A stretch of DNA of 41,372 nucleotides from a virus (taxonomy: Duplodnaviria > Heunggongvirae > Uroviricota > Caudoviricetes): positions 1 through 41,372 of the IMG/VR virus record IMGVR_UViG_2778261576_000004; one strand, 5' to 3'. The translations under genes and the position numbers were made by a program. The first letter of the stretch is position 1. Every line of letters begins with the position of its first letter. Positions 3,738 to 37,686 of this stretch are shown piece after piece. The notes beneath the pieces were generated by a model. That model was given only the letters and a program-made list of their open reading frames with translations, had not been told where the DNA came from and made no database searches.

Positions 3738-4555
3738 ATGTACATATCCTGTTTGCGTGCCCACTCAGGGCGTTTAATGATTTCCACACCGCCCCATTCA
3801 TCATTGATGCGGCATTCGTGATAGGTATTCAGATCCCGGCGGAACAGAGCGTGCCCGGCATCGACATCCTGCGCATCCAGCTCGAACACGCGTACCGGAT
3901 ACCGACCACAATCAATGCTTTCGCTCACGGCAAGAAAGAAAAAACCATGCGGCTGACCAGTAACCCTCATTGCGCCTTCGCGGTACATTGCGTCCTGCAC
4001 GTGGTAGCGGAATTCCTCGATGTGGCGTGCAAAACGGTCCATATCTGCAACCTTTTTCACGTCGACGATCACGTTGTGCTCGTTCAGCCATTTGTCTGGA
4101 CGAATTCGGCACAACTCCCCCGTCTCTTCATCGTTCCAGTACATTGATGCTTCGCAGTAACCAGGTGCTTCCAGCATCCAGCGTGCCGCCGGGTGAGCCA
4201 TTGCGCTATCACGCATCAGCTCCAGTTTCCGCCACTGCTCGGCATCAAGTACCGTAATCCCCATATCCGCCACATCACGAAGAAATTCCTCTTCGTCAGC
4301 TTTACCTTGTTTCGTCCGACGATCGAATTTCGGTGAAACAATGAAGCGTTTGTCGAACTCTCCAGGCTCCAGAAGCAGACAGTGCAATGCGGTTCCCATA
4401 TCCAGTGCAGACTTTTTCTCTTCGTCTTCTGGTGCTGCCTGAACCCATTTAAGAAGCGCCGGATTCTTGGCAACCATGTCCAGTTGCGACTTACTCACGC
4501 CGTCACCGGCGTGGTAGTCTTCGTTGCTGATGTCGAAATAAATTCCCGGTTTCAT
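3734..4555 (-). CDS. PD-(D/E)XK exonuclease (RecE/exonuclease VIII-like partner of RecT)
   Basis: 273 aa directly upstream of and coupled to recT; D...D-V-K motif (IRPDKW...VIVDVKK) typical of PD-(D/E)XK nucleases. Confidence 0.7.
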   Translation of the reverse strand: MKPGIYFDISNEDYHAGDGVSKSQLDMVAKNPALLKWVQAAPEDEEKKSALDMGTALHCLLLEPGEFDKRFIVSPKFDRRTKQGKADEEEFLRDVADMGITVLDAEQWRKLELMRDSAMAHPAARWMLEAPGYCEASMYWNDEETGELCRIRPDKWLNEHNVIVDVKKVADMDRFARHIEEFRYHVQDAMYREGAMRVTGQPHGFFFLAVSESIDCGRYPVRVFELDAQDVDAGHALFRRDLNTYHECRINDEWGGVEIIKRPEWARKQDMYI

Positions 4556-4851
4556 GCCGCGTCCCTCTGCCCATCAAGCTGATCAGCCAGATCCCAGCGG
4601 GCGATAATTGCCATTGCCTCGCGCCGGTAGGCATCCATTAGTTCTTCGAACTCAGGGCTGTCTTTAGCGGCCTCCAGTACTTCCTGGCGAACGCCTTTAA
4701 CTGTTACAACGTCGAAAGTTGATGCCAGTTGATGAAGCCGGATACTCTCAATCAGTTCAACTTGTCGGTCATATAGCTGTTCTGACAGACGGTAGTTCTT
4801 GTCGAATGCCAGCATGATTTTTTGAAGATTTTTCTGCTGATTAACGTTCAT
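4552..4851 (-). CDS. Hypothetical early protein
   Basis: ORF in the leftward operon; start at 4851 (MNVNQQ) has an upstream GGGAGGG Shine-Dalgarno; ATG at 4866 is an alternative. Confidence 0.45.
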   Translation of the reverse strand: MNVNQQKNLQKIMLAFDKNYRLSEQLYDRQVELIESIRLHQLASTFDVVTVKGVRQEVLEAAKDSPEFEELMDAYRREAMAIIARWDLADQLDGQRDAA

Positions 4852-4854
4852 TAT

Positions 4855-5006
4855 CAGCCCTCCCATATCTCGTTATCGTTGGCCACATCGCGAGCTTCTT
4901 TGCTGACGAAAGCCCACTTAATGCCTTCCTGTAAGGTGCGGAACTTCCAGCTCATGAATCCGCATGCAGTAACGCAGTACCAACCGTTGATGATTTTCCA
5001 CTGCAT
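4855..5006 (-). CDS. Hypothetical small protein (about 50 aa)
   Basis: Short ORF (MQWKIINGWYCV...) between OL-like sites and the next early gene; below the ORF-track size cut-off; no known domain. Confidence 0.25.
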
Positions 5007-5025
5007 AACTTGTTACCTCGGTCTG

Positions 5026-5102
5026 TTACCGTTGAGGTAATAATTATGCGTATATGGTTTGATGTCAATAGATATGAGTTAAAAAAATTACCCGTTAGGT
5101 AA
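5026..5102. promoter_or_regulatory. OL-like operator region: two TTACC-N5-GGTAA palindromes (5026-5040, 5088-5102)
   Basis: Two perfect 15-bp palindromes in the intergenic region between the repressor gene and the first leftward early gene. Confidence 0.5.
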
Positions 5103-5113
5103 TCGAATAGGCA

Positions 5114-5138
5114 ATAAAAAAGCCGCCATAAGGCGGCT
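5114..5138 (-). terminator. Rho-independent terminator downstream of the repressor gene (hairpin usable on both strands)
   Basis: AGCCGCC-ATAA-GGCGGCT hairpin (5121-5138) with an A-run upstream on the plus strand, i.e. a U-tract after the hairpin on the minus strand. Confidence 0.6.
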
Positions 5139-5159
5139 TACTTACTGAAAAATATGGTT

Positions 5160-5744
5160 TTATTGTTTGTTTTTTTCGTTCTGGTTGATGACAAATTCAA
5201 TGTAACTTTCGATCTTTGCTTTCTCGGTTTCGGGTAACAATGCGTAGCGCGAGCGATCATAGTTGATGGTCGCAGGGTCGTGCGGGTGAATCAGTAATTC
5301 ATAGCCGTGACGCCCGAATGCGGATGCAACATTCTCCAGGGTGGAAATGGAAACGCTGACCTCATTGTTTAACAGGCGGCTGATTGTCACCTGGGCTACG
5401 CCGGATGCGCGGTGAAGTTTTCCCTGTGTTGAAAGGTCGCGGCTTTCGCTCATCCAGCGTTCCAGGTTGTGAGCCGCCAGCTGGCCAATGTCGCTTGGGC
5501 CGACAGGCTGAAAACCTTCCTGAGAAAGCGAGCGATCGATATCAAGCCAGTTACGGGGTTTATTGGCGGCAGCTTCAATTTTTCGCGCAACCTGATCGCC
5601 GATAACCTTCTTACCAAGAGCCCAGCGGTTTACCAGATTTGCCTGAGTTCCAAGTTTTTCAGCCATCCGCGTCTGAACACCATTGAATTCACGGTCGATC
5701 AAGTCGTTGAGATTTTGCCTGCGGACGTCCTGGATACTTTTCAT
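5160..5744 (-). CDS. Putative prophage repressor (CI-like, tandem HTH, no S24 peptidase domain recognisable)
   Basis: 194 aa; two HTH-like segments (GVQTRMAEKLGTQANLVNRW and GVAQVTISRLLNNE); sits between OL-like and OR-like palindrome pairs, divergent from a Cro-like gene. Confidence 0.55.
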   Translation of the reverse strand: MKSIQDVRRQNLNDLIDREFNGVQTRMAEKLGTQANLVNRWALGKKVIGDQVARKIEAAANKPRNWLDIDRSLSQEGFQPVGPSDIGQLAAHNLERWMSESRDLSTQGKLHRASGVAQVTISRLLNNEVSVSISTLENVASAFGRHGYELLIHPHDPATINYDRSRYALLPETEKAKIESYIEFVINQNEKNKQ

Positions 5745-5799
5745 TTTCTGGAAAATCGCCTCATATATGAATCAGTAGATGATTCAATTTAAAGCAATA

Positions 5800-5862
5800 T
5801 TACCCAACAGGTAAATGCACCTCATGGGTAACTATCCTTGATTTTTGTTACCTTATGGGTGA
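5800..5862. promoter_or_regulatory. OR-like operator region: palindrome 5800-5814 (perfect) and 5848-5862 (one mismatch)
   Basis: TTACCCAACAGGTAA and TTACCTTATGGGTGA in the 154-bp divergent intergenic region between repressor and Cro-like genes. Confidence 0.55.
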
Positions 5863-5898
5863 ATATTTATTATCTGAAATAAATATCAGGCAATAGCT

Positions 5899-6129
5899 AT
5901 GAGCGATAACGGACATTTCGATTTCAAAAAGCACTGGCTTGCACTTACTCCGGATGAGCGTGAAGCCTTCGCACAGGAAGCCGGAACGACGAGTCACTAT
6001 ATCCAGACTCACTTAACAGGTAAGCGCAAAATGCCAGGTAAAGTATTGATGAATGGGCTTTTTAAAGCCTGTAAAACAAGACAATGGCTGCGCTCAAAAG
6101 CAGAACTGGCATACTTCTTCTACTCATGA
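5899..6129 (+). CDS. Cro-like small HTH regulator
   Basis: 76 aa, divergent from the repressor across the operator region; HTH-like segment LTPDEREAFAQEAGTTSHYIQTHLTGKR. Confidence 0.45.
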   Translation: MSDNGHFDFKKHWLALTPDEREAFAQEAGTTSHYIQTHLTGKRKMPGKVLMNGLFKACKTRQWLRSKAELAYFFYS

Positions 6130-6150
6130 TATCCAGCTACAACCCTCTGT

Positions 6151-6175
6151 AGACCGCCACCCGGCGGTCTTTTCA
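6151..6175 (+). terminator. Rho-independent terminator after the Cro-like gene (tR1-like position)
   Basis: AGACCGCC-ACCC-GGCGGTCT hairpin followed by TTTCAT; immediately followed by a one-mismatch palindrome copy at 6185-6199. Confidence 0.5.
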
Positions 6176-6279
6176 TATCTATTCGTACCTCAAAGGTAAT
6201 AAAAAACCAAATATGGTTGATCTTTTTTTTGTGTCAGCACAAAATGACCGTAATCCCAATACTAATAACAGGGCTTACC

Positions 6280-6480
6280 ATGGAAATCATTACACGTATT
6301 GATGCCGCAAAGCGCGGACTTAAACGCTACTACACCGGAAAAACATGTAAGCACGGACATGACAGTGAACGCTGGGTTTACAACGGACACTGTGTTGAGT
6401 GCACCATGGAATCAAACCGTCGTATCAGGGCAGAGATTAAGCAGATCATGATTAATTCCTCCCCACAACATTCAAGCTGA
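6280..6480 (+). CDS. Hypothetical small Cys/His-rich protein (cII position)
   Basis: ORF between cro-like and O-like genes; CKHGH...HCVEC spacing suggests metal binding; start uncertain (ATG 6280 or upstream). Confidence 0.3.
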   Translation: MEIITRIDAAKRGLKRYYTGKTCKHGHDSERWVYNGHCVECTMESNRRIRAEIKQIMINSSPQHSS

Positions 6481-16686: not shown

Positions 16687-16763
16687 TGGCGTGGCATGCA
16701 GGATTCGAACCTGCGACCAACCGCTTAGAAGGCGGTTGCTCTGTCCGACTGAGCTAATGCCAC
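16687..16763 (-). tRNA. tRNA-Arg (anticodon UCU)
   Basis: Minus strand folds by hand into a cloverleaf: acceptor GTGGCAT/ATGCCAC, D-arm GCTC/GAGC, anticodon stem ACCGC/GCGGT with loop CTTCTAA, T-arm GCAGG-TTCGAAT-CCTGC, encoded CCA. Confidence 0.85.
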
Positions 16764-26072: not shown

Positions 26073-28819
26073 TGCCTGTTGTTCCTACTACATCCGGACG
26101 CCAGGTGCAAAGTCGTGGTGTGCAAACCGGTGGTTTTCAGACCTTCGATGTTCCTCAAGCAGGTCAGGTGCTGGCGAATGTCGCAGATCAGTATGCGGTG
26201 GCATATGGTGAAGCCAGGCAGAAAGCGAATGTTGCTATGGCCCAGGAGGCGTTACTGCAATTTAACCAATTTGCAGATGACCAGATTAACAACCCTGAAA
26301 ATGGGCTGATTTCTAAACAGGGTAAAAACGCTCTTGGTCAGAGTGACGCTGTTATGAAAAATATGCAGGAAAGGGCTCAGGCATTATTAGGCTCAATCCC
26401 TGAAAGTGAGGAAAGGAATAAATTATCCTTTCAACTCCAGCAGTCTATGCAGTCTTATTACAATCAGGCACGTCGATATGAAGTTGGGCAGTTTCAGCAA
26501 TTCCAAGATCAAACGTATTTGTCAGGAAATGCATTGGCTGTCACTCAGTCTGCGGGGCTATATAGCGATAACCAAGCATTTGTCGATTTAGCCAAGCAGC
26601 GATTTGAATCTATTGATCAATACGCTGATGCGCATGGGCTTCCTGATGAGTGGCGTGTTCAGCAGAAAACTCAGCTCAAGGAAGAAATGGGGCAGCAAGC
26701 ATGGATAGGAAATATCGCTCAAAAATACAACGAGTTTCTTCAGGTTAATGGAGAGCCAGGGGATCTTGGTGGTGTGAGTCGTGCAATATCACATGGTAAT
26801 TCATTGGATGCTCGTGGTTTACGTAATAATAACCCTGGTAATATTGAAGCGAGCAAATCTAACCCGTGGGAAGGTCAGATCGGTAGCGATGGACGTTTTG
26901 CAACGTTTGCTACCCCTGAGCATGGAATCCGCGCGTTGGGTAAAAATATGTTGTCTTACCAGCGTCAAGGCTATGACACCGTTAGCGAGATTGTTAATCG
27001 CTATGCTCCGGCTAGTGATGGTAATAATACTGATGCTTATATTAGGGCATTGTGTGGTGAGCTTGGTGTTGGGGAGAATGATCAGCTTGATATCTCTAAC
27101 CCAAAGACACTAGCTGCTTTATGTGCTGGGATTATTAAACACGAAAATGGCAGTATGCCTTATAGCACCGAACAGCTTGAAACTGGTATCTCGGCAGCCC
27201 TTGGTCTAACTAACCTTGATTCACCTAAGCGTTATACGGGCAATGCGGCATTTGATGCTATGAGCCCTCAAATGCAAATACAGGCATTGAGGCAGGCTAA
27301 TGAGCTGAGAAATCAGTACCGCCAGCAGTATGCGGACCAGCTTAGCACCGTAGTTAAAGATGCATATTCAGCCCTTGATGAAGGATTGAAACCTGAGAAG
27401 TTACCTTCTGAGGACGATTTTATCCGGGCCAATGGTCCGCGCATTGGCGCTATGAAGTGGAAGGATATGCAGGCGCAGATACAATATGGAGGTGTCATTG
27501 GTGCCGCTAAAGACCTCACTCCAGAAGGACGACAAGACATTCTTGAACGTTTACGTCCACAGGATCCAAACGCTCCTGGATTTGCTGCTAACCAGCAACG
27601 CTGGGAGAAAATGCAGGCCAAATTTAAAGAGATGGATAGGGAGTGGGAGATTCAGCAGGGAAGAAACAGGTTCGTGTCTTCAATGCAAAATAACTTCCCG
27701 CTGGACCCGAACGACAAAAACAATCAGGCAGCGGTAGACCGTTATTTCGCGCAGGATATCGCGCCTTCGTTTTCCATATCTGATCCGCAGAGCATCAATA
27801 CACTGGTCACCGTCACAACTAAAAGCGGCATGATACCAACTCAGGTTAAAACAATGCTTAACAGTGGAGCAACATCAAGAGATCCTGCGCTGGTTGTCCC
27901 GATGGCAAAATTCTACGGTCAGTTATTCGATAATAATCCGGCGGCAGCGGCAACACTTGATAAAAGTACGATGGCATTTTACGGCAAGGTTTACGATTAT
28001 TCCCGCGCTGGCGTGCCGGAGGATAAGGCTGTTGATATGGCTTACAGCCAGGTGTTCCAACAGGATGACCGAATGAAACAGATGCTTTCCACTGCCATGC
28101 GAGACAAAAAATATGTCGCGGCGAGGGCAACTGCTGCACAAAATAACGCCAGCAGTCTGACTTCCTTTGGTTCGTGGTCTCCGGATATTACCGATCCAGG
28201 AAAATCAAATGCGGCCTATCAGCGAGATTACCAGACAATTTACGATGCTAACTTTGTACAGACAGGTGGCGATGCAGAACAGGCTGAGAAAATGACCAAT
28301 GCCATGATCAGAACCACCTGGGGAGTTTCTACGGTTAATGGCAAAGCAGAGGTTATGAAGTATGCACCTGAGGCATTGTACGGAGTAAATAATGGTGCTG
28401 GTAACTGGATACAGGGGCAGTGGGAGCAGGAAAAACGCGAGCTTAAATCAAAATCCTTTGGCGGTCCTCGCAGTGATACGGACTTAATACTTGTTTCTGA
28501 TGGCCTTACGGCAAGGGATAGGAGTTATGCTGTTATGGTTTTACAGCCTGACGCAAACGGAGCGATAGAACCGAGAAATTATATTGGAGAAAATGGTCTC
28601 CCTGTTCGTTTCAAGCCGGATCAGCTGACATCTCCAATGTACAGGCAAACCATTCAGTTACAGCAACAGCGTGTTGATGAGGCTAGAGTGCGGAGAGAAG
28701 GCAATCCGCTGCCGCAGTTCAGCAATAAAGATGGATATACTCCTCCAGATCTGACCAAACCATTCGGTTATGGTTCAGCCAATTACCTTCCGAGCAATAT
28801 ATACGCAGGGGGCAAATAA
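26072..28819 (+). CDS. Putative internal virion (ejection) protein C-like
   Basis: 915-aa ORF in the gp15 position; contains a visibly AT-richer internal segment (about 26.3-27.3 kb). Confidence 0.5.
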   Translation: MPVVPTTSGRQVQSRGVQTGGFQTFDVPQAGQVLANVADQYAVAYGEARQKANVAMAQEALLQFNQFADDQINNPENGLISKQGKNALGQSDAVMKNMQERAQALLGSIPESEERNKLSFQLQQSMQSYYNQARRYEVGQFQQFQDQTYLSGNALAVTQSAGLYSDNQAFVDLAKQRFESIDQYADAHGLPDEWRVQQKTQLKEEMGQQAWIGNIAQKYNEFLQVNGEPGDLGGVSRAISHGNSLDARGLRNNNPGNIEASKSNPWEGQIGSDGRFATFATPEHGIRALGKNMLSYQRQGYDTVSEIVNRYAPASDGNNTDAYIRALCGELGVGENDQLDISNPKTLAALCAGIIKHENGSMPYSTEQLETGISAALGLTNLDSPKRYTGNAAFDAMSPQMQIQALRQANELRNQYRQQYADQLSTVVKDAYSALDEGLKPEKLPSEDDFIRANGPRIGAMKWKDMQAQIQYGGVIGAAKDLTPEGRQDILERLRPQDPNAPGFAANQQRWEKMQAKFKEMDREWEIQQGRNRFVSSMQNNFPLDPNDKNNQAAVDRYFAQDIAPSFSISDPQSINTLVTVTTKSGMIPTQVKTMLNSGATSRDPALVVPMAKFYGQLFDNNPAAAATLDKSTMAFYGKVYDYSRAGVPEDKAVDMAYSQVFQQDDRMKQMLSTAMRDKKYVAARATAAQNNASSLTSFGSWSPDITDPGKSNAAYQRDYQTIYDANFVQTGGDAEQAEKMTNAMIRTTWGVSTVNGKAEVMKYAPEALYGVNNGAGNWIQGQWEQEKRELKSKSFGGPRSDTDLILVSDGLTARDRSYAVMVLQPDANGAIEPRNYIGENGLPVRFKPDQLTSPMYRQTIQLQQQRVDEARVRREGNPLPQFSNKDGYTPPDLTKPFGYGSANYLPSNIYAGGK

Positions 28820-31800
28820 TGCCGATATATGAACAGGATCCTAAAGAGTTGCTTGGCGAGGATATTCAGCAAATAGCAGCACCTGATGACAGTAATTTCT
28901 ATATGGAAACACCTTCTTTGCTTTCTGCTGTGAACCCATTTACCAGTGATCAACGCGTTCAAAGGTCTAGACAAGCAGCATTTCGTATAGATAACACGCT
29001 GGGTAGCTTTATTGCCAGTGCTCCTTTCAGTCAGTTTGACAGGGTTGAAGGATATAACCCATTTGATAACGATGCAGCAGATATTAAAGGCTATGAAGAT
29101 TTTGCAGATTCGTTTATCAACTCCGGTTCGCCTGAAGAAACAATGGCAATTAAACATCGAATCGATCAGCAGAGAGCTGACATGGAATACAATTCAGGCT
29201 TGGGATTTGCTGGTACAGTCTCTTCTGTAGCAATGAGATTAGCAGATCCATTCAATGCGATTTCTATGTTTATTCCGTTCGGCGCTGTTGTTCGTGGCGG
29301 TCGTATTGCAGAAACAGCCGGGCGTTTTGCCCTGGCGAATGCTGCTGGCAGTGTTGCTTCAGAGGCCGCATTACAGGCCACTCAGGAAGCTCGCTCACCG
29401 ATGGAGAGCGTATCGAACGTTGTTGTTGATGCTCTCGTTGGTGGGATCCTTGGTGCTGGTGCACAGCTACTTGCTGGACCTGGCGCGCGCGAGGCAGTGG
29501 TTAACTCAGTAGGTAATCATTTGCGAGGTATGGATTCTCCTCAAAGCATTGGTGCAGCTCAGGTTTTCAATACCACACTCGATCAGGAACAGCTCGCTGG
29601 ACTTGGACTTGCTAACAAAACGTTGAGTGTCACTCCTGCTGGCCGCTTGGCGCAATCACCATCTCTTGTCTCCCGTCAGATTAACCAGCAGCTTGCCGAA
29701 AATAACTATTTCTTCGCCAAAAATGATGAGGGGTTGGCTACGTTTACGGCAGTCGAGACTAAGATTAAGCAATACGACGCCATGCTTTATAAGCAGATGG
29801 AAGCCACTCGTGATGCTTACCAGCAGTACAGCAAATCTGTTAGCGCCCGCGGCGTGAAGAGGATGAACTTTATTGATTTCAATGAAGCTGTTGGCATGGC
29901 TATGCGCCGTGGTGATCAGAGTGATATTCCTGAGGTTTCACAAGCAGCCGCCAGAATCCGCCCCATTTTCGAGACCACAAAAGCCCGTATGCAGGAACTG
30001 GGGATCCTTCCTGAGGATATCGATGTCGTGACGGCGAAAAGTTATCTTCCCCGCATTTATAAGTTCGATAAGATACTTTCCGACCGCACTGAATTCAGAG
30101 GGCGAATTGCCAACTGGATACAAGGGATTAGTGCCAAAGGTGCTGACAAAGCAGGTCAGCGAATTGAAAGGATAAATTCATTGCTAAAAACTGCAGAGGA
30201 ATCGGCACCGCGCGCTGATGCTCTCGCTAGTGAAATCGCTGAAGCGGAGAAATGGTCTGGTAAAAAAATTCTACTCATGGAAGAACTGGATAAACGAAAT
30301 AAGCTTATATCTCAGGAGACTGACACACAGGCGCGTCTTACAAGAATAGAAAAAGAGTTGGCCGAGACTTCATCAGAAAAACTTCAGGCAAGAATGATGA
30401 AAGAAAGCTCTGACCTTAAAACACGCCTTGATGATATAGCGCAGGCAAAGAGTGAGCTTCCTGTCTATCAGCGCCATATGGAGTTGTTGGATAATCCACG
30501 GAAATATCGTTCTGAGCTTCGCCGACTGCAAAAACGGGCAAATTCAACCACAAGGCTGAATGCAAGCCGCGAACGAGCACTGAAGCAGATGGAGCCTCTA
30601 TCCCGAGAGGAAGCAGAGGACGCTGCTGACGAGATCGTGAATAAAATAATAGGCGCACCTTCCGGGCTTGTACCAGCCGATATTATCCCAGAGAGACTCG
30701 TTGGTCGGGCTGGTTTCACTAAAAGCAGAACGCTGCTTATTCCTGATGAGCGTATAGAAGATTTTCTTGAATCAGATGTTAACTACATCATGGAAAGTTA
30801 TCTCCGGCAGGTGGCACCAGAAATTGAGCTGACTGCGCAGTTTGGCCGTAAAGATATGGGGGAGCAAATCCGTCAGGTTAGTGAGGAATATACCCGGCTA
30901 ATAAAAGAGGCTAAAACACCTAAACGACGTGCAGTTCTTGAGAAGCAACGGGAGGCTGATATTAGGGATATTACGGCTATGCGTGATCGACTGCTTGGTA
31001 CTTACGGTGCACCTCAAGATCCACGCAGTTTCTTTGTTCGTGCCGGGCGAGTTGCTAGGAATATTAACTTCCTCCGTTTGCTTGGTGGAATGACCGTCTC
31101 CGCTGCAACTGATCTGATGCGACCGATGATGCAGCATGGCCTGAGAAAATCTCTCGGACCAATGGTAAGCATGCTTAAAAATATGGACTCAGTGAAGATT
31201 GCAACCAGGGATTTGCGAGAAATGGCCGTTGGGCTTGATTATGTCCTGTCTACGCGTACAAAGGCTATAGCGGATCTTACTGACCCATATAGCCGGAGAA
31301 GCGCCGCTGAGCGAGGCCTGAACTGGATGACGCAGAAATTCGGTAACTGGACGCTGATGAATCAGTGGAACAGCGCACTTAAATCATGGTCTGGGATGAT
31401 AGTGCAGTCGAGGATACTTGACGCGGCTCGCCAAGTTTCTGCTGGTGGCACGCTCTCCAAAAGTGAAATGCGGAAGATGGCACAGGTCGGCATCAATGAA
31501 GATGTTCTGCGTCGAATCGGGGAGCAATTCGGGAAGCACGGAGAGGATATGGACGGGCTGTTAACCGGGCATAGTCATCTGTGGGATGACCGTTTCGCTA
31601 GAGAGATTTTCCAGTCTGCAGTGCTGAAAGATGTAGACTCAGTGATTGTAACGCCTGGCGTAGGTGATACACCGCTGTTTTTTAGTAAAGAAGGCTGGAA
31701 GATGATCACGCAGTTCAAAACGTTTATCTTCGCACAGCATAACAGGGTGCTAGTATCTGGTATCCAGCAGGGCGATGCTGCATTCTATCTTGGTGCGCTT

Positions 31801-32208
31801 GGCACGATTGCGCTTGGCTCAATGGTCTATATGATGAAACAGAAGTTAAGCGGTCGCGATATCGACTACAGCTGGAATAACCTTGTGAAAGAGGGGATCG
31901 ACCGGGGCGGAATGCTTGGCTGGCTCTCTGAGCCGCTGAATACCGTTGAGAACATAAGCGGCGGTAGGTTTGGTCTTGGCGCGATGTTTGGTGCGCCTCC
32001 GGTATCAAGGTTTCAGAGTCGTAATGCTATTGGTGCTTTACTTGGTCCTACCTTTGATCTTGGCGGTGATGCCGCGACGGTTGCGAATGGTGTACTTAAC
32101 GGAGAATTTGACAGCCAGCAAACCCACGCGGTCCGTAAAATGCTACCTTTTCAGAACCTGTGGGCGATATCACCGTTACTAAATAAAGTTGAAGAGCAGA
32201 TGAAATAG
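28819..32208 (+). CDS. Putative internal virion (ejection) protein D-like
   Basis: 1129-aa ORF in the gp16 position; long coiled-coil regions and hydrophobic Gly/Ala-rich stretches. Confidence 0.55.
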   Translation: MPIYEQDPKELLGEDIQQIAAPDDSNFYMETPSLLSAVNPFTSDQRVQRSRQAAFRIDNTLGSFIASAPFSQFDRVEGYNPFDNDAADIKGYEDFADSFINSGSPEETMAIKHRIDQQRADMEYNSGLGFAGTVSSVAMRLADPFNAISMFIPFGAVVRGGRIAETAGRFALANAAGSVASEAALQATQEARSPMESVSNVVVDALVGGILGAGAQLLAGPGAREAVVNSVGNHLRGMDSPQSIGAAQVFNTTLDQEQLAGLGLANKTLSVTPAGRLAQSPSLVSRQINQQLAENNYFFAKNDEGLATFTAVETKIKQYDAMLYKQMEATRDAYQQYSKSVSARGVKRMNFIDFNEAVGMAMRRGDQSDIPEVSQAAARIRPIFETTKARMQELGILPEDIDVVTAKSYLPRIYKFDKILSDRTEFRGRIANWIQGISAKGADKAGQRIERINSLLKTAEESAPRADALASEIAEAEKWSGKKILLMEELDKRNKLISQETDTQARLTRIEKELAETSSEKLQARMMKESSDLKTRLDDIAQAKSELPVYQRHMELLDNPRKYRSELRRLQKRANSTTRLNASRERALKQMEPLSREEAEDAADEIVNKIIGAPSGLVPADIIPERLVGRAGFTKSRTLLIPDERIEDFLESDVNYIMESYLRQVAPEIELTAQFGRKDMGEQIRQVSEEYTRLIKEAKTPKRRAVLEKQREADIRDITAMRDRLLGTYGAPQDPRSFFVRAGRVARNINFLRLLGGMTVSAATDLMRPMMQHGLRKSLGPMVSMLKNMDSVKIATRDLREMAVGLDYVLSTRTKAIADLTDPYSRRSAAERGLNWMTQKFGNWTLMNQWNSALKSWSGMIVQSRILDAARQVSAGGTLSKSEMRKMAQVGINEDVLRRIGEQFGKHGEDMDGLLTGHSHLWDDRFAREIFQSAVLKDVDSVIVTPGVGDTPLFFSKEGWKMITQFKTFIFAQHNRVLVSGIQQGDAAFYLGALGTIALGSMVYMMKQKLSGRDIDYSWNNLVKEGIDRGGMLGWLSEPLNTVENISGGRFGLGAMFGAPPVSRFQSRNAIGALLGPTFDLGGDAATVANGVLNGEFDSQQTHAVRKMLPFQNLWAISPLLNKVEEQMK

Positions 32209-32649
32209 CTATTCACAATTAGTGATGGCGTATGTATCAAATATATTGCCATCACTAAATACATACCTATACTCAATCACTCCGCCAAGGTGAATAAATG
32301 CTTTCATTTGCCTGTTGGAGCAAATGCTCGATTTTGAATAATTTCGCATTACACTCTTTAATTTATTTTCTAAGGTTACATCACCATTATAAACTTTTGA
32401 TAAATAGCTGTTGTTGTAATTAAGATGCGCTACAACTAAAAGTTTGTTTAGTATTGCATTTATTGAAACAATAGACATATTATCATTCAATTTTATGGGA
32501 AGTGACTTTCCTGCTTCTGATGCAATTTTGTTTGCATGTGCACACATATCCTCATTTATTAAATTCTTAAAACATATGTCGTTTGCAAACGAAAAAATTG
32601 GTAGGATAAACAAAACGGTAGCTGTAATAGCGTGCATCGGCTTAATCAT
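32209..32649 (-). CDS. Hypothetical secreted protein (AT-rich accessory gene)
   Basis: N-terminal signal-peptide-like segment (AITATVLFILPIFSFA); strongly AT-rich coding sequence; convergent with the upstream virion gene. Confidence 0.4.
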   Translation of the reverse strand: MIKPMHAITATVLFILPIFSFANDICFKNLINEDMCAHANKIASEAGKSLPIKLNDNMSIVSINAILNKLLVVAHLNYNNSYLSKVYNGDVTLENKLKSVMRNYSKSSICSNRQMKAFIHLGGVIEYRYVFSDGNIFDTYAITNCE

Positions 32650-32661
32650 TAGGTGACCTTT

Positions 32662-33111
32662 ATGTTCAAGAAGATGATCAACAGATTAATCGGTGGTAAG
32701 GAGGTTAGCAATAAAATTCAACCTCTTATCTTTAAGGATAACTTTTCAGCTTTTGAGTATGCGTGTAAGTATCTTGACACAAGCCTTTCAGCCAATAAAC
32801 CAATGCCAGCCATCATCATACCTGGTCCCAGTGGGGAACAGCCAGTTTTGCTGGATTCTGGAAGACAAAGGGCAATGCTGAAGGTGTGCTCAGCTGATGG
32901 TGGATTTTTTGTTATTGCCGATTCATCTTACAGCAAAGGACCAAAGCTGAGGATTGGTGATCTTGTTGCTTGGTTGCCTGTGAGTTATGCCGAAGAATTA
33001 ACGGATAAAATAGAAGATCCTCGCTCCGCTATGGTTGGCTTTATATTGGGAACCATTCATCCTGAACTAACATCTACTGGCTGGAAGGGTAAAGAAAGAT
33101 TTCGCAAGTAG
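32662..33111 (+). CDS. Hypothetical protein (AT-rich accessory gene)
   Basis: ATG 32662 with AGGTGA SD; divergent from the 32209-32649 gene with almost no spacer; followed by a terminator. Confidence 0.4.
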   Translation: MFKKMINRLIGGKEVSNKIQPLIFKDNFSAFEYACKYLDTSLSANKPMPAIIIPGPSGEQPVLLDSGRQRAMLKVCSADGGFFVIADSSYSKGPKLRIGDLVAWLPVSYAEELTDKIEDPRSAMVGFILGTIHPELTSTGWKGKERFRK

Positions 33112-33125
33112 CGTGACATGTCACA

Positions 33126-33149
33126 GGCCGCTTTCGCGGCCTTGTTTTT
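33126..33149 (+). terminator. Rho-independent terminator
   Basis: GGCCGC-TTTC-GCGGCC hairpin followed by TTGTTTTT; directly preceded by the GTGACATGTCAC palindrome. Confidence 0.6.
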
Positions 33150-33309
33150 AACGAATGCCACCGCCGCCCGGACGGGAATCCGCAGAACGCCCACCGCAGC
33201 GGGAGCCGTCAGCAGCAGTGTCGCTGTCGTGCTGACAACGACCGGCAAAGGCCTGAGTTGAAGCTACCAGAGACAACAAAACGAACAGTGCAGCAAATGC
33301 TTTTTTCAT
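33148..33309 (-). CDS. Hypothetical small secreted peptide
   Basis: Predicted signal peptide MKKAFAALFVLLSLVASTQAFA followed by a 31-aa Gly/Arg-rich tail with two Cys; weak SD. Confidence 0.25.
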   Translation of the reverse strand: MKKAFAALFVLLSLVASTQAFAGRCQHDSDTAADGSRCGGRSADSRPGGGGIR

Positions 33310-33401
33310 TGTGAAATTTCCATCTATAAGCCACCTCAATGTGGCGTCAATGAGTGTAGCACTGACTTTTGTTTCGCCCACAAAAAAGCCCGCAGCGCGG
33401 G

Positions 33402-33842
33402 CTATTCTTCTTCATCATTAAAAAGCGGATTGTTGTTTCCATCTGATGAAAGGAAAGGTATGTGTTCTCTTGAAAATCCAACAATGACAATTTCATTATC
33501 ATTTTTTGCATAATGAATGCATTCATTAGAATGCCTTCCGCCAGGGTTGAAATTTAAGTTAATGGTATAATTCTTAAATGTGTTTGGATACCATGTTGGC
33601 CCACAATGATAATGCCAATAATTCTCTTGCTCATAATTGTCTGAGCCGGGAATTTTATCATGGTTATCATCAACCCACGAGGGCTTGTTTTTTCCAACAA
33701 GCGCCCTTCCATTGGCAACATCCTCTAAAAAACTTTGTATGATTTTTATTTCATCATCAGTAAGGAAAGGTCCGTCTACAGCGAAAGGGGTGTTGCTTTC
33801 CCCATGTAGAAAACTATTAGATATTCTAATGTTAAACTTCAA
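33402..33842 (-). CDS. Hypothetical protein (AT-rich, probable TTG start)
   Basis: TTG at 33842 preceded by CAGGAG SD; AT-rich; downstream partner of the 33863-34030 gene. The ORF-track N-terminal extension to 33983 overlaps the better-supported small gene. Confidence 0.4.
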   Translation of the reverse strand: MKFNIRISNSFLHGESNTPFAVDGPFLTDDEIKIIQSFLEDVANGRALVGKNKPSWVDDNHDKIPGSDNYEQENYWHYHCGPTWYPNTFKNYTINLNFNPGGRHSNECIHYAKNDNEIVIVGFSREHIPFLSSDGNNNPLFNDEEE

Positions 33843-33862
33843 GGAAAACTCCTGATGTGCTT

Positions 33863-34030
33863 CTATTTGGAGCGAAATGCCGCCTTGAAGTCGCTGAAAG
33901 ATGTTCCTGTCTGGTAAACCATATCCTTGTCGCGCTCTTTGCTTGCGCGGCCAAGCATAACTTTTCCAATGACATCCCAGCATTGCTTGGCTTGTTCATT
34001 GTGCTGAGTACGATTTTTCAACGCTGTCAT
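33863..34030 (-). CDS. Hypothetical small protein (55 aa)
   Basis: ATG 34030 with a strong AAGGAGG SD 6 nt upstream and a palindrome copy directly 5' of it; translation MTALKNRTQHNEQAKQCWDVIGKVMLGRASKERDKDMVYQTGTSFSDFKAAFRSK. Confidence 0.4.
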   Translation of the reverse strand: MTALKNRTQHNEQAKQCWDVIGKVMLGRASKERDKDMVYQTGTSFSDFKAAFRSK

Positions 34031-35556: not shown

Positions 35557-37686
35557 ATGACGGTCTCAACCGAAGTTGACCACAACGAATACACAGGTAA
35601 CGGCGTTACGACATCGTTTCCGTATACTTTTCGAATTTTCAGAAAATCAGACCTGGTTGTTCAGGTGTCTGACCTGAACGGGAACGTAACAGAATTGGTC
35701 CTGGATACCGGTTATACGGTAACTGGGGCGGGCACTTATAGTGGCGGTTCTGTGGTTCTTCCGTCTCCTCTTGCTGCTGGCTGGCGAATTACGATAGATC
35801 GTGTGCTTGATGTAGTGCAGGAGACAGACCTTCGCAATCAGGGAAAATTTTTCCCCGAAGTGCATGAAGATGCTTTTGACTACCTGACGATGCTGATCCA
35901 GCAATGTTTTGGGTGGTTCAGACGTGCATTGATGAAACCATCTTTGCTTGCAAAATATTACGATGCAAAGCAAAACAGAATTTCTAACCTTGCAGATCCA
36001 TCACTTGAGCTTGACGCTGTAAATAATCGCTCAATGCGTAATTATGTCGATGCTGCAATCGCCGGGGTTGTTGGTGGTTTTGGTTGGTTTATTCAGTATG
36101 GTTCTGGGGCAGTATACCGAACGTTCCAGGATAAGATGAGAGACACCATTAGTGTTCGTGATTTTGGTGCAAAAGGAGACGGCATAACAGATGATACTGT
36201 AGCAATTCAAAATGCTATTAATGCAGTACCAGAAGGGGCTATACTTGGATTTTATGGTGGTGAATTTGTTTTTGATAAGGTTGAATTGTTTAAGCCAATA
36301 ACATTAGTTGGTGATGCAACGTTAATTCACAACGGATTTAGAATAAAATCTAGCAGAATCCGATCGCTTTTATCTGGCGTTCAGAAATGCAAGGATTACT
36401 CCGAGTCTTCAAGAGCATTTTATTGCTATGCAAATGAAGACCAAAGAGATTATGACGATATTCAGATTTTATTTAATAGATTTGAAGGTTTCTTTTACTC
36501 TACGGCATTTGTTGCAAAAAACTATTATTTGGAGAATGACCCTAATTCAAGAACTGTCAAAAACACAAAAGTAATAGGGTGTACATCAGTTGCTCCTGAT
36601 TCTGTAAATGCCGGTCATTTTCAACATATAGGCGTTACAAATGCTGAAACATCACATAACTCAACTTATGGCGGACAAAATGCAACATCATACAACTTCA
36701 TTAACCAGAATGGATTTGTAAGGATTATAGGAAATTATGACCATAACAATAGCTATGGTTCATGTGAGCTTGAGAACTCAATGGTGAGCAACTCAGTTAT
36801 ATCAGGTAATACGTTTTCGTCATATTTATGGGTGGATGATACAAGTAATGTTACTATTTCTGGAAATACCGTTTCATCAAGGATCAAAGTAACATCGCAA
36901 ACTGACGATGTTCATAATATAACCATATCAGCAAATACCACAAAACGGATTACTATAGAGCAATTTGGAGAATCTCCGACAGGTCTGGTATATGGTGCAT
37001 TAATTTCCTGTAACACTATTACTGGCGACAGTGATGGAAGTTCAGACATTTTATGTACGTCACTTGTTACAGGTGAGATTTCATCAAATTATTGTCATGG
37101 ATCAGAAAAAAATATATCAATTGTCCGCCTGGATTCTTCTGATATAACTGTTAGAAACAATAAAGGAAACAAAGGATTACTTACAATAAGTAACGATGGT
37201 GGAAGGATAATTGAATATGGCAATGATTCTATGGTTCTGTCTGGAAGCATAGATAGCAGACATATACATAATTTATTACATCCAGACACATCGTATTTAG
37301 ATCTACCGGGGAAATATCTGCACGGAACTAAATATACTGGCAGTATCCCCCCCGGTTCCACAGGAACTGTATCACTTCAAATACCATCAGGGGCAAGCCT
37401 TGTTTTCAGGGGTGTTTCTATATGGGTTCTAATTAGAGATGTTAGCAATAACAATATATCGTCATTCAGAATTGATGGTTCATATAGAGTTGTTGGTGGA
37501 AGTGTTGGTCTTAGTTTTGCTGATGCTTATTCGAAACTCGGGGTGGATGCAAACTCTATAACAGTGTCAAACAATAACAGCACTTCTGACAATATCAGCA
37601 TAGCAATTAAAAACACAGATTCATCAAAAACCCTTCAGGTTACTGTTATGCCGGAGGTTTCAAGCAGGTTAGGTATTGAGGAATAG
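35557..37686 (+). CDS. Tailspike/tail fiber with T7 gp17-like N-terminal adaptor and pectate-lyase-like beta-helix domain
   Basis: N-terminal 130 aa resembles the gp17 tail-attachment domain as recalled; VRDFGAKGDGITDDTVAIQNAI is the signature start of right-handed beta-helix depolymerases; C-terminal two-thirds are AT-rich. Confidence 0.8.
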   Translation: MTVSTEVDHNEYTGNGVTTSFPYTFRIFRKSDLVVQVSDLNGNVTELVLDTGYTVTGAGTYSGGSVVLPSPLAAGWRITIDRVLDVVQETDLRNQGKFFPEVHEDAFDYLTMLIQQCFGWFRRALMKPSLLAKYYDAKQNRISNLADPSLELDAVNNRSMRNYVDAAIAGVVGGFGWFIQYGSGAVYRTFQDKMRDTISVRDFGAKGDGITDDTVAIQNAINAVPEGAILGFYGGEFVFDKVELFKPITLVGDATLIHNGFRIKSSRIRSLLSGVQKCKDYSESSRAFYCYANEDQRDYDDIQILFNRFEGFFYSTAFVAKNYYLENDPNSRTVKNTKVIGCTSVAPDSVNAGHFQHIGVTNAETSHNSTYGGQNATSYNFINQNGFVRIIGNYDHNNSYGSCELENSMVSNSVISGNTFSSYLWVDDTSNVTISGNTVSSRIKVTSQTDDVHNITISANTTKRITIEQFGESPTGLVYGALISCNTITGDSDGSSDILCTSLVTGEISSNYCHGSEKNISIVRLDSSDITVRNNKGNKGLLTISNDGGRIIEYGNDSMVLSGSIDSRHIHNLLHPDTSYLDLPGKYLHGTKYTGSIPPGSTGTVSLQIPSGASLVFRGVSIWVLIRDVSNNNISSFRIDGSYRVVGGSVGLSFADAYSKLGVDANSITVSNNNSTSDNISIAIKNTDSSKTLQVTVMPEVSSRLGIEE

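Follow-up and report, generated by a model that had tools for sequence, protein, structure and literature searches.

A predicted periplasmic protein of AspS/PA3611-like fold and its head-to-head neighbour in a hypervariable slot behind the ejection-protein genes of an Escherichia coli prophage

We analysed a stretch of viral DNA of 41,372 nucleotides (nt) (IMG/VR record IMGVR_UViG_2778261576_000004, positions 1 to 41,372; this whole stretch is referred to below as the window), with emphasis on a pair of divergent genes designated A (32209-32649, minus strand; 146 amino acids, aa) and B (32662-33111, plus strand; 149 aa). The pair is an accessory ("moron") cassette that occupies a hypervariable slot at the end of the ejection-protein operon. 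The new element is the product of A, a phage-borne, soluble and putatively periplasmic protein that is modelled with the AspS/PA3611 fold and is encoded in a slot equivalent to that of sieA in phage P22. In the overall picture that we favour, although we place it somewhat short of an even chance, A would be expressed from the prophage and act as a periplasmic binder, the cytoplasmic protein B would be made late, and the expression of the two genes would be reciprocal.

The window represents an epsilon15/phiV10-like (Uetakevirus-like) temperate podophage, present as a prophage in E. coli. This assignment is based on its matches to phages phiV10, TL-2011b, HEMP4 and EC.W1-9, on the genes annotated in this prophage type, which include those for the epsilon15 gp10 capsid staple protein, a T7 gp14-family core protein, integrase and lysis, and on the pectate-lyase-like tailspike encoded in the window. 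Upstream of the pair lies the gene of the last internal virion/ejection protein (28819-32208, plus strand; 1129 aa), which stands in a T7 gp16-like position, matches PHROG 342 ("internal virion protein with endolysin domain", E = 2e-233), and is itself preceded by the gene annotated as the T7 gp14-family core protein in the same prophage type. A is convergent with the ejection gene, and the two stop codons touch, with 0 nt between them. Directly 3' of B, a terminator scan and folding identified an intrinsic terminator of the late-direction transcript (33125-33150, plus strand), which consists of the stem-loop GGCCGC-UUUC-GCGGCC followed by UUGUUUUU; its homologue is labelled "terminator" in the phiV10 annotation. 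Reading the window from left to right, the ejection gene is followed by A (minus), B (plus), the terminator, a set of leftward accessory genes, one of them for an AntA/Bro-type antirepressor, and the tailspike gene. A preliminary description of the pair had placed it between virion genes, which holds for the left flank, whereas the right flank consists of the terminator and small accessory genes.

To characterize the slot, we compared 74 loci in which the last ejection gene is 79-100% identical to that of the window. The DNA just 3' of this gene falls into 27 unrelated cassette types: a 283-aa plus-strand open reading frame (ORF) at 26 loci, a 204-aa plus-strand ORF at 12, the A/B pair at 6 (plus diverged versions), and other types at the remaining loci, most of them seen once. 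For example, the 283-aa gene takes the place of A/B in EC.W1-9 and in many IMG/VR phages whose ejection gene is 100% identical. The function of the alternative cargo is mostly not known, and one of these genes encodes a lipoprotein; an hhalign comparison of the 283-aa protein with the B family showed the two to be unrelated. In phiV10, only a 46-aa membrane peptide gene stands ahead of the terminator. The phiV10 p21/late-terminator slot and other moron slots likewise hold variable cargo between the last virion gene and a conserved terminator, and in relatives B or other genes are added there; the cargo described here differs in that it includes a reverse-oriented gene that adjoins the ejection gene without any spacer and lacks its own terminator. 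The right boundary of the variable slot is a conserved gene for a secreted or membrane-associated peptide with two cysteines (33148-33309, minus strand; 53 aa; PHROG 14503, "membrane associated protein", moron category, E = 2e-40), which stands to the right of many alternative cassettes.

Among 5426 complete E. coli genomes, 14 contain the exact A/B cassette, compared to about 500 that carry the flanks. In every context inspected, A adjoins the 3' end of the last ejection gene in convergent orientation, at distances of -8 to +3 nt, and this position is kept even beside ejection proteins with only about 42% identity or of another length. A and B stand head to head, with a spacer of 12-24 nt, in eight diverged lineages that comprise all three subtypes of A; these pairs include A proteins with 29-42% and B proteins with 33-57% identity to those of the window. 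At loci L006 and L007, B was detected alongside A by tblastn. Both genes are kept 1.6 kb apart in Klebsiella prophages (loci L003-L005); A occurs without B at locus L084, in Salmonella (L101, L104, L105) and in Leclercia (L102, L103); and phiV10-type phages have B but no A, with B encoded on the late strand and flanked by the p21-like peptide gene and the terminator. It should be noted that the head-to-head partner of A at L084 (7624-7962, plus strand) is a strongly hydrophobic 112-aa membrane protein, not B, and that its coding sequence (CDS) overlaps the start of A by 18 nt. A tblastn search of the INPHARED phages found no homologue of A and one distant homologue of B only, and a scan of species-representative genomes with the C-terminus of the ejection protein yielded two loci only, neither with A or B.

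Both ORFs exist as described earlier, and we found that they are real genes under purifying selection. The ratio of nonsynonymous to synonymous substitution rates (dN/dS) is 0.19-0.24 for A and 0.06-0.15 for B, each protein matches a PHROG family over its full length (PHROG 8772 for A and PHROG 9944 for B, both of unknown function), and the structure models of both are confident; these three lines of evidence together support the reality of the genes. The Prokaryotic Genome Annotation Pipeline (PGAP) calls both CDSs with exactly the same limits in E. coli genomes whose prophage segment is 99.8% identical (RefSeq accessions WP_000595048.1 for A and WP_000473936.1 for B in identical E. coli prophages). 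One could suspect that one or both are chance ORFs in AT-rich DNA, in line with the lack of matches for A or B in Pfam (none for the window protein A at E <= 0.1) or NCBIfam, and in PADLOC-DB at E <= 0.1 for A, B and the two downstream genes. This possibility is effectively refuted by the dN/dS values, the homologues conserved down to 30% identity, the confident AlphaFold2 models, the PHROG matches and the PGAP annotation.

The start codons of A and B are 12 nt apart (spacer 32650-32661, TAGGTGACCTTT), in agreement with the dozen or so nucleotides noted initially, whereas 148-195 nt separate the other divergent pairs of this prophage type; the tight spacing is therefore exceptional. The guanine-plus-cytosine (GC) content is 31.7% for A and 42.2% for B, compared to 48.2% for the whole window. 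The lowest value of any 441-nt segment of the window (30.8%) falls at A, and only 0.3% of such segments are as low as A; at third codon positions, the GC fraction is 0.31 for A, compared to 0.44 for the upstream gene. The claim that both genes are much more AT-rich than their surroundings is thus borne out for A, which is clearly below the window and the upstream gene, whereas B is only mildly AT-rich, at about the 10th percentile of the window. The same composition was found in every lineage examined (32-43% GC for genes of the A family, 42-48% for B, 44-55% for the adjoining ejection genes), including lineages with dS > 0.5 and only about 30% protein identity. AT-richness is accordingly a lasting property of the module, an old accessory element of this phage group, and gives no indication of recent acquisition; the recent event is the exchange of cassettes among closely related prophages. 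The earlier proposal of horizontal acquisition is right as far as mobility is concerned, as seen from the frequencies of cassette and flanks in E. coli genomes, and its inference of recency from composition is not supported.

These data also bear on the reading that the pair is a recent block from an AT-rich donor, with promoters inside each other's CDS forming a mutually exclusive switch. That A is the GC minimum of the window, that the cassette is patchily distributed and that a 12-nt spacer is too short for promoters are all consistent with it. Conversely, AT-richness is equal in all old lineages and the site is the same even beside ejection proteins that are only about 42% identical, and therefore the module is long-standing; in addition, no consensus promoters were found, and B can be served by late read-through that ends at the terminator (see below). 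We consider such a recent switch very unlikely.

The N-terminus of A is a canonical Sec signal peptide (codons 1-22, 32584-32649, minus strand), MIKPMHAITATVLFILPIFSFA|ND, in accordance with the signal peptide noted earlier. The predicted signal peptidase I site is SFA|ND, the first cysteine is at +4, and A22 is invariant in the family alignment. No lipobox (L-x-[GAS]-C) is present in A or in any of 22 of 22 family members. As judged from these features, A is a Sec-exported, non-lipidated protein of the periplasm. In a collection of 5.8 billion proteins, the family forms 23 clusters at 90% identity; all its members are 142-150 aa long and carry a signal peptide, and all named members and examined contexts are prophages of Enterobacteriaceae. 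Three subtypes can be distinguished, with less than 30% identity to each other. In subtype iii (L013 5545-5988, L113 2544-2987, L062 7193-7630), the signal peptide is nearly identical to that of the window protein, and the mature domain, with two cysteines rather than four, is essentially unrelated to the window type. This pattern suggests domain swapping behind a conserved 5' end and junction. In identity profiles, the best conserved segment between otherwise different cassettes is the junction, i.e., the signal-peptide codons of A, the spacer and the first ~100 nt of B, which fits either a regulatory constraint or a recombination linker.

An AlphaFold2 model of A, built on 22 sequences, has a mean predicted local distance difference test (pLDDT) score of 84, with values >90 throughout the mature part. 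The top structural matches of this model are the pilotin AspS and PA3611. In AspS, the order of elements is a helix, three strands, helices and two strands, and PA3611 has an extra helix after strand 3 (PMC3542185). The predicted order in A is that of AspS (helix 1, three strands, helices 2-3, two strands), which is shared with the AspS/GspS-beta (YghG) pilotins of Vibrio-type type II secretion systems (Pfam T2SSS_2; PDB 4FTF, 5ZDH); in addition, as in PA3611, strand 3 of the model is followed by an extra helix, and the signal peptide comes with no lipid anchor. A has four cysteines, C26, C36, C110 and C145. C110 is part of helix 91-111, and C145 is close to the C-terminus; by their sequence spacing of 35 residues, compared to 37 in Vibrio cholerae AspS and in YghG, they may correspond to the conserved AspS disulfide, which connects helix 2 to the C-terminus. 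A differs from AspS/YghG in several respects. It has no lipobox and hence no outer-membrane lipid anchor, whereas YghG has LLSGC; no C-terminal helix 4 is predicted in A, which also has an extra N-terminal cysteine pair, C26 and C36; and A, which is undetected by the Pfam model, is a prophage gene beside ejection genes rather than part of a gsp operon. PA3611 of Pseudomonas aeruginosa (PDB 3NPD), a soluble periplasmic protein of the AspS fold, is 16% identical to A in the structural alignment; it is chromosomal and conserved in Pseudomonas, whereas A resides in a variable prophage cassette.

At the sequence level, Pfam T2SSS_2 (PF16549) gave a faint match in 2 of 22 relatives of A (best E = 0.055), comparison of the A family to E. 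coli YghG by hhalign gave a non-significant probability of 1%, searches of PDB sequences with the profiles of the A and B families gave nothing significant, and the BFVD viral structures contained no match to A at E <= 1e-3. Literature retrieved for the combination of pilotin, prophage and superinfection exclusion contained no mention of "pilotin". We conclude that A is predicted to be a soluble, PA3611-like member of the AspS fold class; it is not a pilotin, because the lipobox, the defining feature of working pilotins, is missing from A and from every one of its relatives.

The fold raises the possibility that A is a soluble pilotin mimic aimed at the host, which would bind the S-domain of a secretin, e.g., the Vibrio-type GspD-beta served by the pilotin YghG/AspS, and would stabilise, mistarget or block the type II secretion system; the outcome would be lysogenic conversion of secretion or virulence, not exclusion. 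AspS and PA3611 are the top structural matches, PA3611 has been proposed to be a periplasmic secretin binder (PMC3542185), an AspS-type pilotin gene, yghG, is present in E. coli, and the lack of the lipid anchor required for real pilotin function is as expected of a decoy. Nevertheless, A has no sequence similarity to YghG, and no genetic linkage to a Vibrio-type gspD or other gsp genes was found in the contexts examined, all of which are prophages with A beside ejection genes; the benefit to the phage is also not obvious. Action on the host secretin is the main rival to exclusion, and it appears improbable.

The position of A points to a different comparison. On the P22 map, gene 16, which encodes the last ejection protein, is followed by sieA and, likewise on the minus strand, orf59a and mnt, then by arc and ant (plus), a terminator and the tailspike gene. 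A shares the slot and the orientation of sieA, being convergent with the last ejection gene and upstream of the tailspike gene, and both genes are antisense within the direction of late transcription. Three SieA sequence types with less than 30% identity have been described in P22-like phages, and SieA escape mutations map to the C-terminal portions of ejection proteins gp16 and gp20 (PMC10883804). The SieA and A families thus resemble each other also in diversity, each with about three sequence types that share under 30% identity. The two proteins have no sequence similarity (BLASTP E = 2.8); SieA is located in the inner membrane, whereas A has a cleavable signal peptide only and, in the model, a soluble alpha/beta domain as its mature part; and the virion modules of the two phages are unrelated. 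The likeness is best described as an analogy of place and diversity pattern, not homology.

A P22-like immI module was found inserted exactly between A and B in the Klebsiella prophages L003-L005 (locus positions 4024-6432). The module is 1.6 kb long, encodes an Mnt-like protein of 77 aa and, divergently, an Arc-like protein of 53 aa and a P22_AR_N antirepressor (Ant), and replaces the first ~10 codons of A and the first ~16 codons of B. The 77-aa protein is homologous to P22 Mnt (E = 1e-8), and A is directly downstream of its gene on the same strand, so that the order is ejection gene, A (minus), Mnt-like (minus), Arc-like/Ant (plus), B (plus). These relatives reproduce the mnt/arc/ant core between A and B, i.e., they match the adjacency of sieA to the mnt/arc/ant region. 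With this insertion, the whole module order of ejection genes, exclusion slot, immI and tailspike is common to the epsilon15-like and P22-like lineages.

For B, a profile search of 1.84 billion representative proteins yielded a family of 307 clusters at E <= 1e-3, which has no Pfam entry. B is a cytoplasmic protein, modelled (pLDDT 93) with a basic/hydrophobic N-terminal helix and a small OB-like (oligonucleotide/oligosaccharide-binding) beta-barrel. Structural matches to S1/IF1-type OB folds (RsgA N-domain, eIF1A, SSB) have low, generic scores with no sequence similarity, and B differs from these proteins in its extra N-terminal helical segment and in its own motifs, FKDN..AFEYAC, DGGF and GDLVxW. 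Among 149 representatives analysed, 113 are stand-alone domains and 36 have an N-terminal extension of >40 residues; transmembrane helices are predicted in 25 of these 36, and others have a zeta-toxin/AAA-type kinase domain or a zinc ribbon. The N-terminus of B itself, MFKKMINRLIG, forms a basic, amphipathic helix in the prediction. This helix and the frequent membrane anchors of relatives suggest that B acts at the cytoplasmic face of the inner membrane. The contexts of distant homologues are mostly short metagenomic contigs that carry little information. In Acinetobacter phage MD-2021a (L096 4195-5387), a distant homologue (29% identity) is encoded directly downstream of a CI-like repressor gene on the same strand. 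Another contig (L098 6001-6915, metagenomic; the cluster has a member from Burkholderia multivorans) encodes a tandem-duplicated B-domain protein of 304 aa, with genes for phosphoribosyl pyrophosphate synthetase, nicotinate phosphoribosyltransferase, NADAR and Nudix/NrtR proteins as neighbours and type I-F Cas genes (Csy3, Csy4) adjoining; a role of this neighbourhood as a nicotinamide adenine dinucleotide-related accessory or counter-defence region is possible.

The 12-nt spacer contains the Shine-Dalgarno sequence of B (AGGTGA, plus strand, 5 nt before the ATG), followed by the complement of that of A (AAAGG on the minus strand, 7 nt before the ATG). It is kept as T[ATC]GGTG[AG]CCTTT in four diverged lineages, and its length is 12-24 nt in 8 of 8 head-to-head lineages. 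Since the spacer consists of just the two Shine-Dalgarno sequences, the mRNAs of A and B would be complementary across both ribosome-binding sites; as far as the sequence tells, a translatable A mRNA must contain the complement of the ribosome-binding site and first codons of B, and vice versa. We found no consensus sigma-70 promoter within 200-300 nt upstream of A or B, only weak candidates, and scans with strict and relaxed thresholds, together with a comparison of seven lineages, revealed no conserved consensus promoter for either gene. A weak extended -10-like element, TGGTAGGAT, lies at 32599-32607, 54 nt upstream of B, where it is inseparable from the coding constraint on the signal peptide of A. 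A scan of 31900-33500 against Rfam gave one sub-threshold chance match only.

The statement that the promoters must lie inside each other's CDS therefore describes a possibility rather than a necessity, because B is reachable by read-through. Its transcription can be explained by read-through from the late operon, ending at the late terminator; such a transcript would be antisense to all of A, as the late-direction transcript of P22 would be to sieA. The transcript of A could come from a weak promoter inside B, or from read-through of leftward genes across B. Mutually exclusive expression is geometrically plausible, and the most economical reading, in our view, is that the two genes would be expressed reciprocally, A in the lysogen and B during lytic growth.

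Under the favoured picture, A would be made from the prophage, as sieA is; the position of A directly downstream of the Mnt-like repressor gene in Klebsiella would fit such expression. Once exported, A would bind an envelope target in the periplasm, the likeliest being a helix that the ejection-protein conduit of related podophages exposes to the periplasm as they enter, and this binding would result in superinfection exclusion. B would be produced mainly by late read-through transcription, and complementarity of the A and late B mRNAs across both ribosome-binding sites would make their expression reciprocal. The location of the cassette in a variable slot, the sieA-like position, the three divergent subtypes at one locus and the terminator directly after B are in support of the picture as a whole. 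The part that concerns function, i.e., that A binds a periplasmic envelope target and thereby excludes superinfecting phages, is the likeliest of the roles considered for A, although by itself we place it well short of an even chance.

A more specific version can be formulated on the basis of the fold. The alpha/beta module of AspS holds an amphipathic helix of its partner in a hydrophobic groove. By extension, A might be a soluble pilotin mimic that serves as a periplasmic trap for an amphipathic helix of either the incoming podophage ejection conduit or the host secretin, and that represents a new, soluble and periplasmic class of superinfection-exclusion proteins, with B at the cytoplasmic face or as the lytic counterpart and antisense pairing of the two ribosome-binding sites enforcing reciprocity. 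We regard this combination as unlikely.

Several observations weigh against the favoured picture. The subtype of A does not track the type of ejection protein, which disfavours a specific interaction between the two; the positional analogy to sieA spans two unrelated virion types; the relationship to AspS/PA3611 is by fold only, given that no Pfam, PDB-sequence or YghG hhalign match is significant; and there is no convincing sigma-70 promoter for A inside B. Furthermore, the position downstream of a CI-like repressor gene is classic for prophage-expressed genes, and that of the Acinetobacter homologue would suggest expression of B in the lysogen rather than late.

The association of the two genes can also be explained by a single two-component system that spans the inner membrane, acting jointly in exclusion or abortive infection, or with B regulating A. 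The head-to-head arrangement in eight diverged lineages, with all three subtypes of A paired with B, is expected in this case, as are the retention of both genes in Klebsiella despite the immI-like module between them, the junction being the best conserved part between cassettes, and the frequent membrane tethering of B homologues. Against this, three lineages carry A but lack B, B is found with no A in phiV10-type phages and among hundreds of distant homologues, PADLOC gave no match, and location in different compartments makes direct contact unlikely. A joint system thus has, in our estimate, a low probability.

Other features of the window were recorded in passing. A GC-rich hairpin with a terminator-like score on both strands (33387-33403) lies between the 53-aa peptide gene and a 193-aa AT-rich ORF (33402-33983, minus strand; 38.7% GC; PHROG 5954 of unknown function). 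In TL-2011b, a neighbouring gene in the region matching 33402-33983 is annotated as a YafO-family toxin, and at L010, a 181-aa protein in the position of the 193-aa ORF has a faint match to YafO_toxin. A DUF4760 gene takes the place of this ORF at L001 and in other prophages. The tailspike gene (35557-37686, plus strand) encodes a pectate-lyase-like domain and an endosialidase-type N-terminal motif; its distal two thirds fall to 34-39% GC, especially at 36400-37600, which suggests a swapped receptor-binding part. A gene for tRNA-Arg (anticodon TCT) is located at 16687-16763 (minus strand), within the prophage, where it is flanked by the terminase and portal gene regions.

Should neither gene show a phenotype, the pair would be one of many ORFan cassettes in a moron hotspot. 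B establishes a large family that as yet has no name (about 300 clusters at 50% identity); its members are often tethered to membranes and occur in accessory regions of phages, and the copy in the E. coli prophage is a convenient entry point to this family. If A does exclude phages, the slot after the ejection genes would be a general home of exclusion genes in unrelated podophage lineages, and a helix-binding fold of the pilotin type would have been recruited as a soluble periplasmic blocker. Such a finding would provide the first functional handle on the orphan PA3611-like fold, as well as a probe for the periplasmic stage of DNA delivery by podophages, which is poorly understood.

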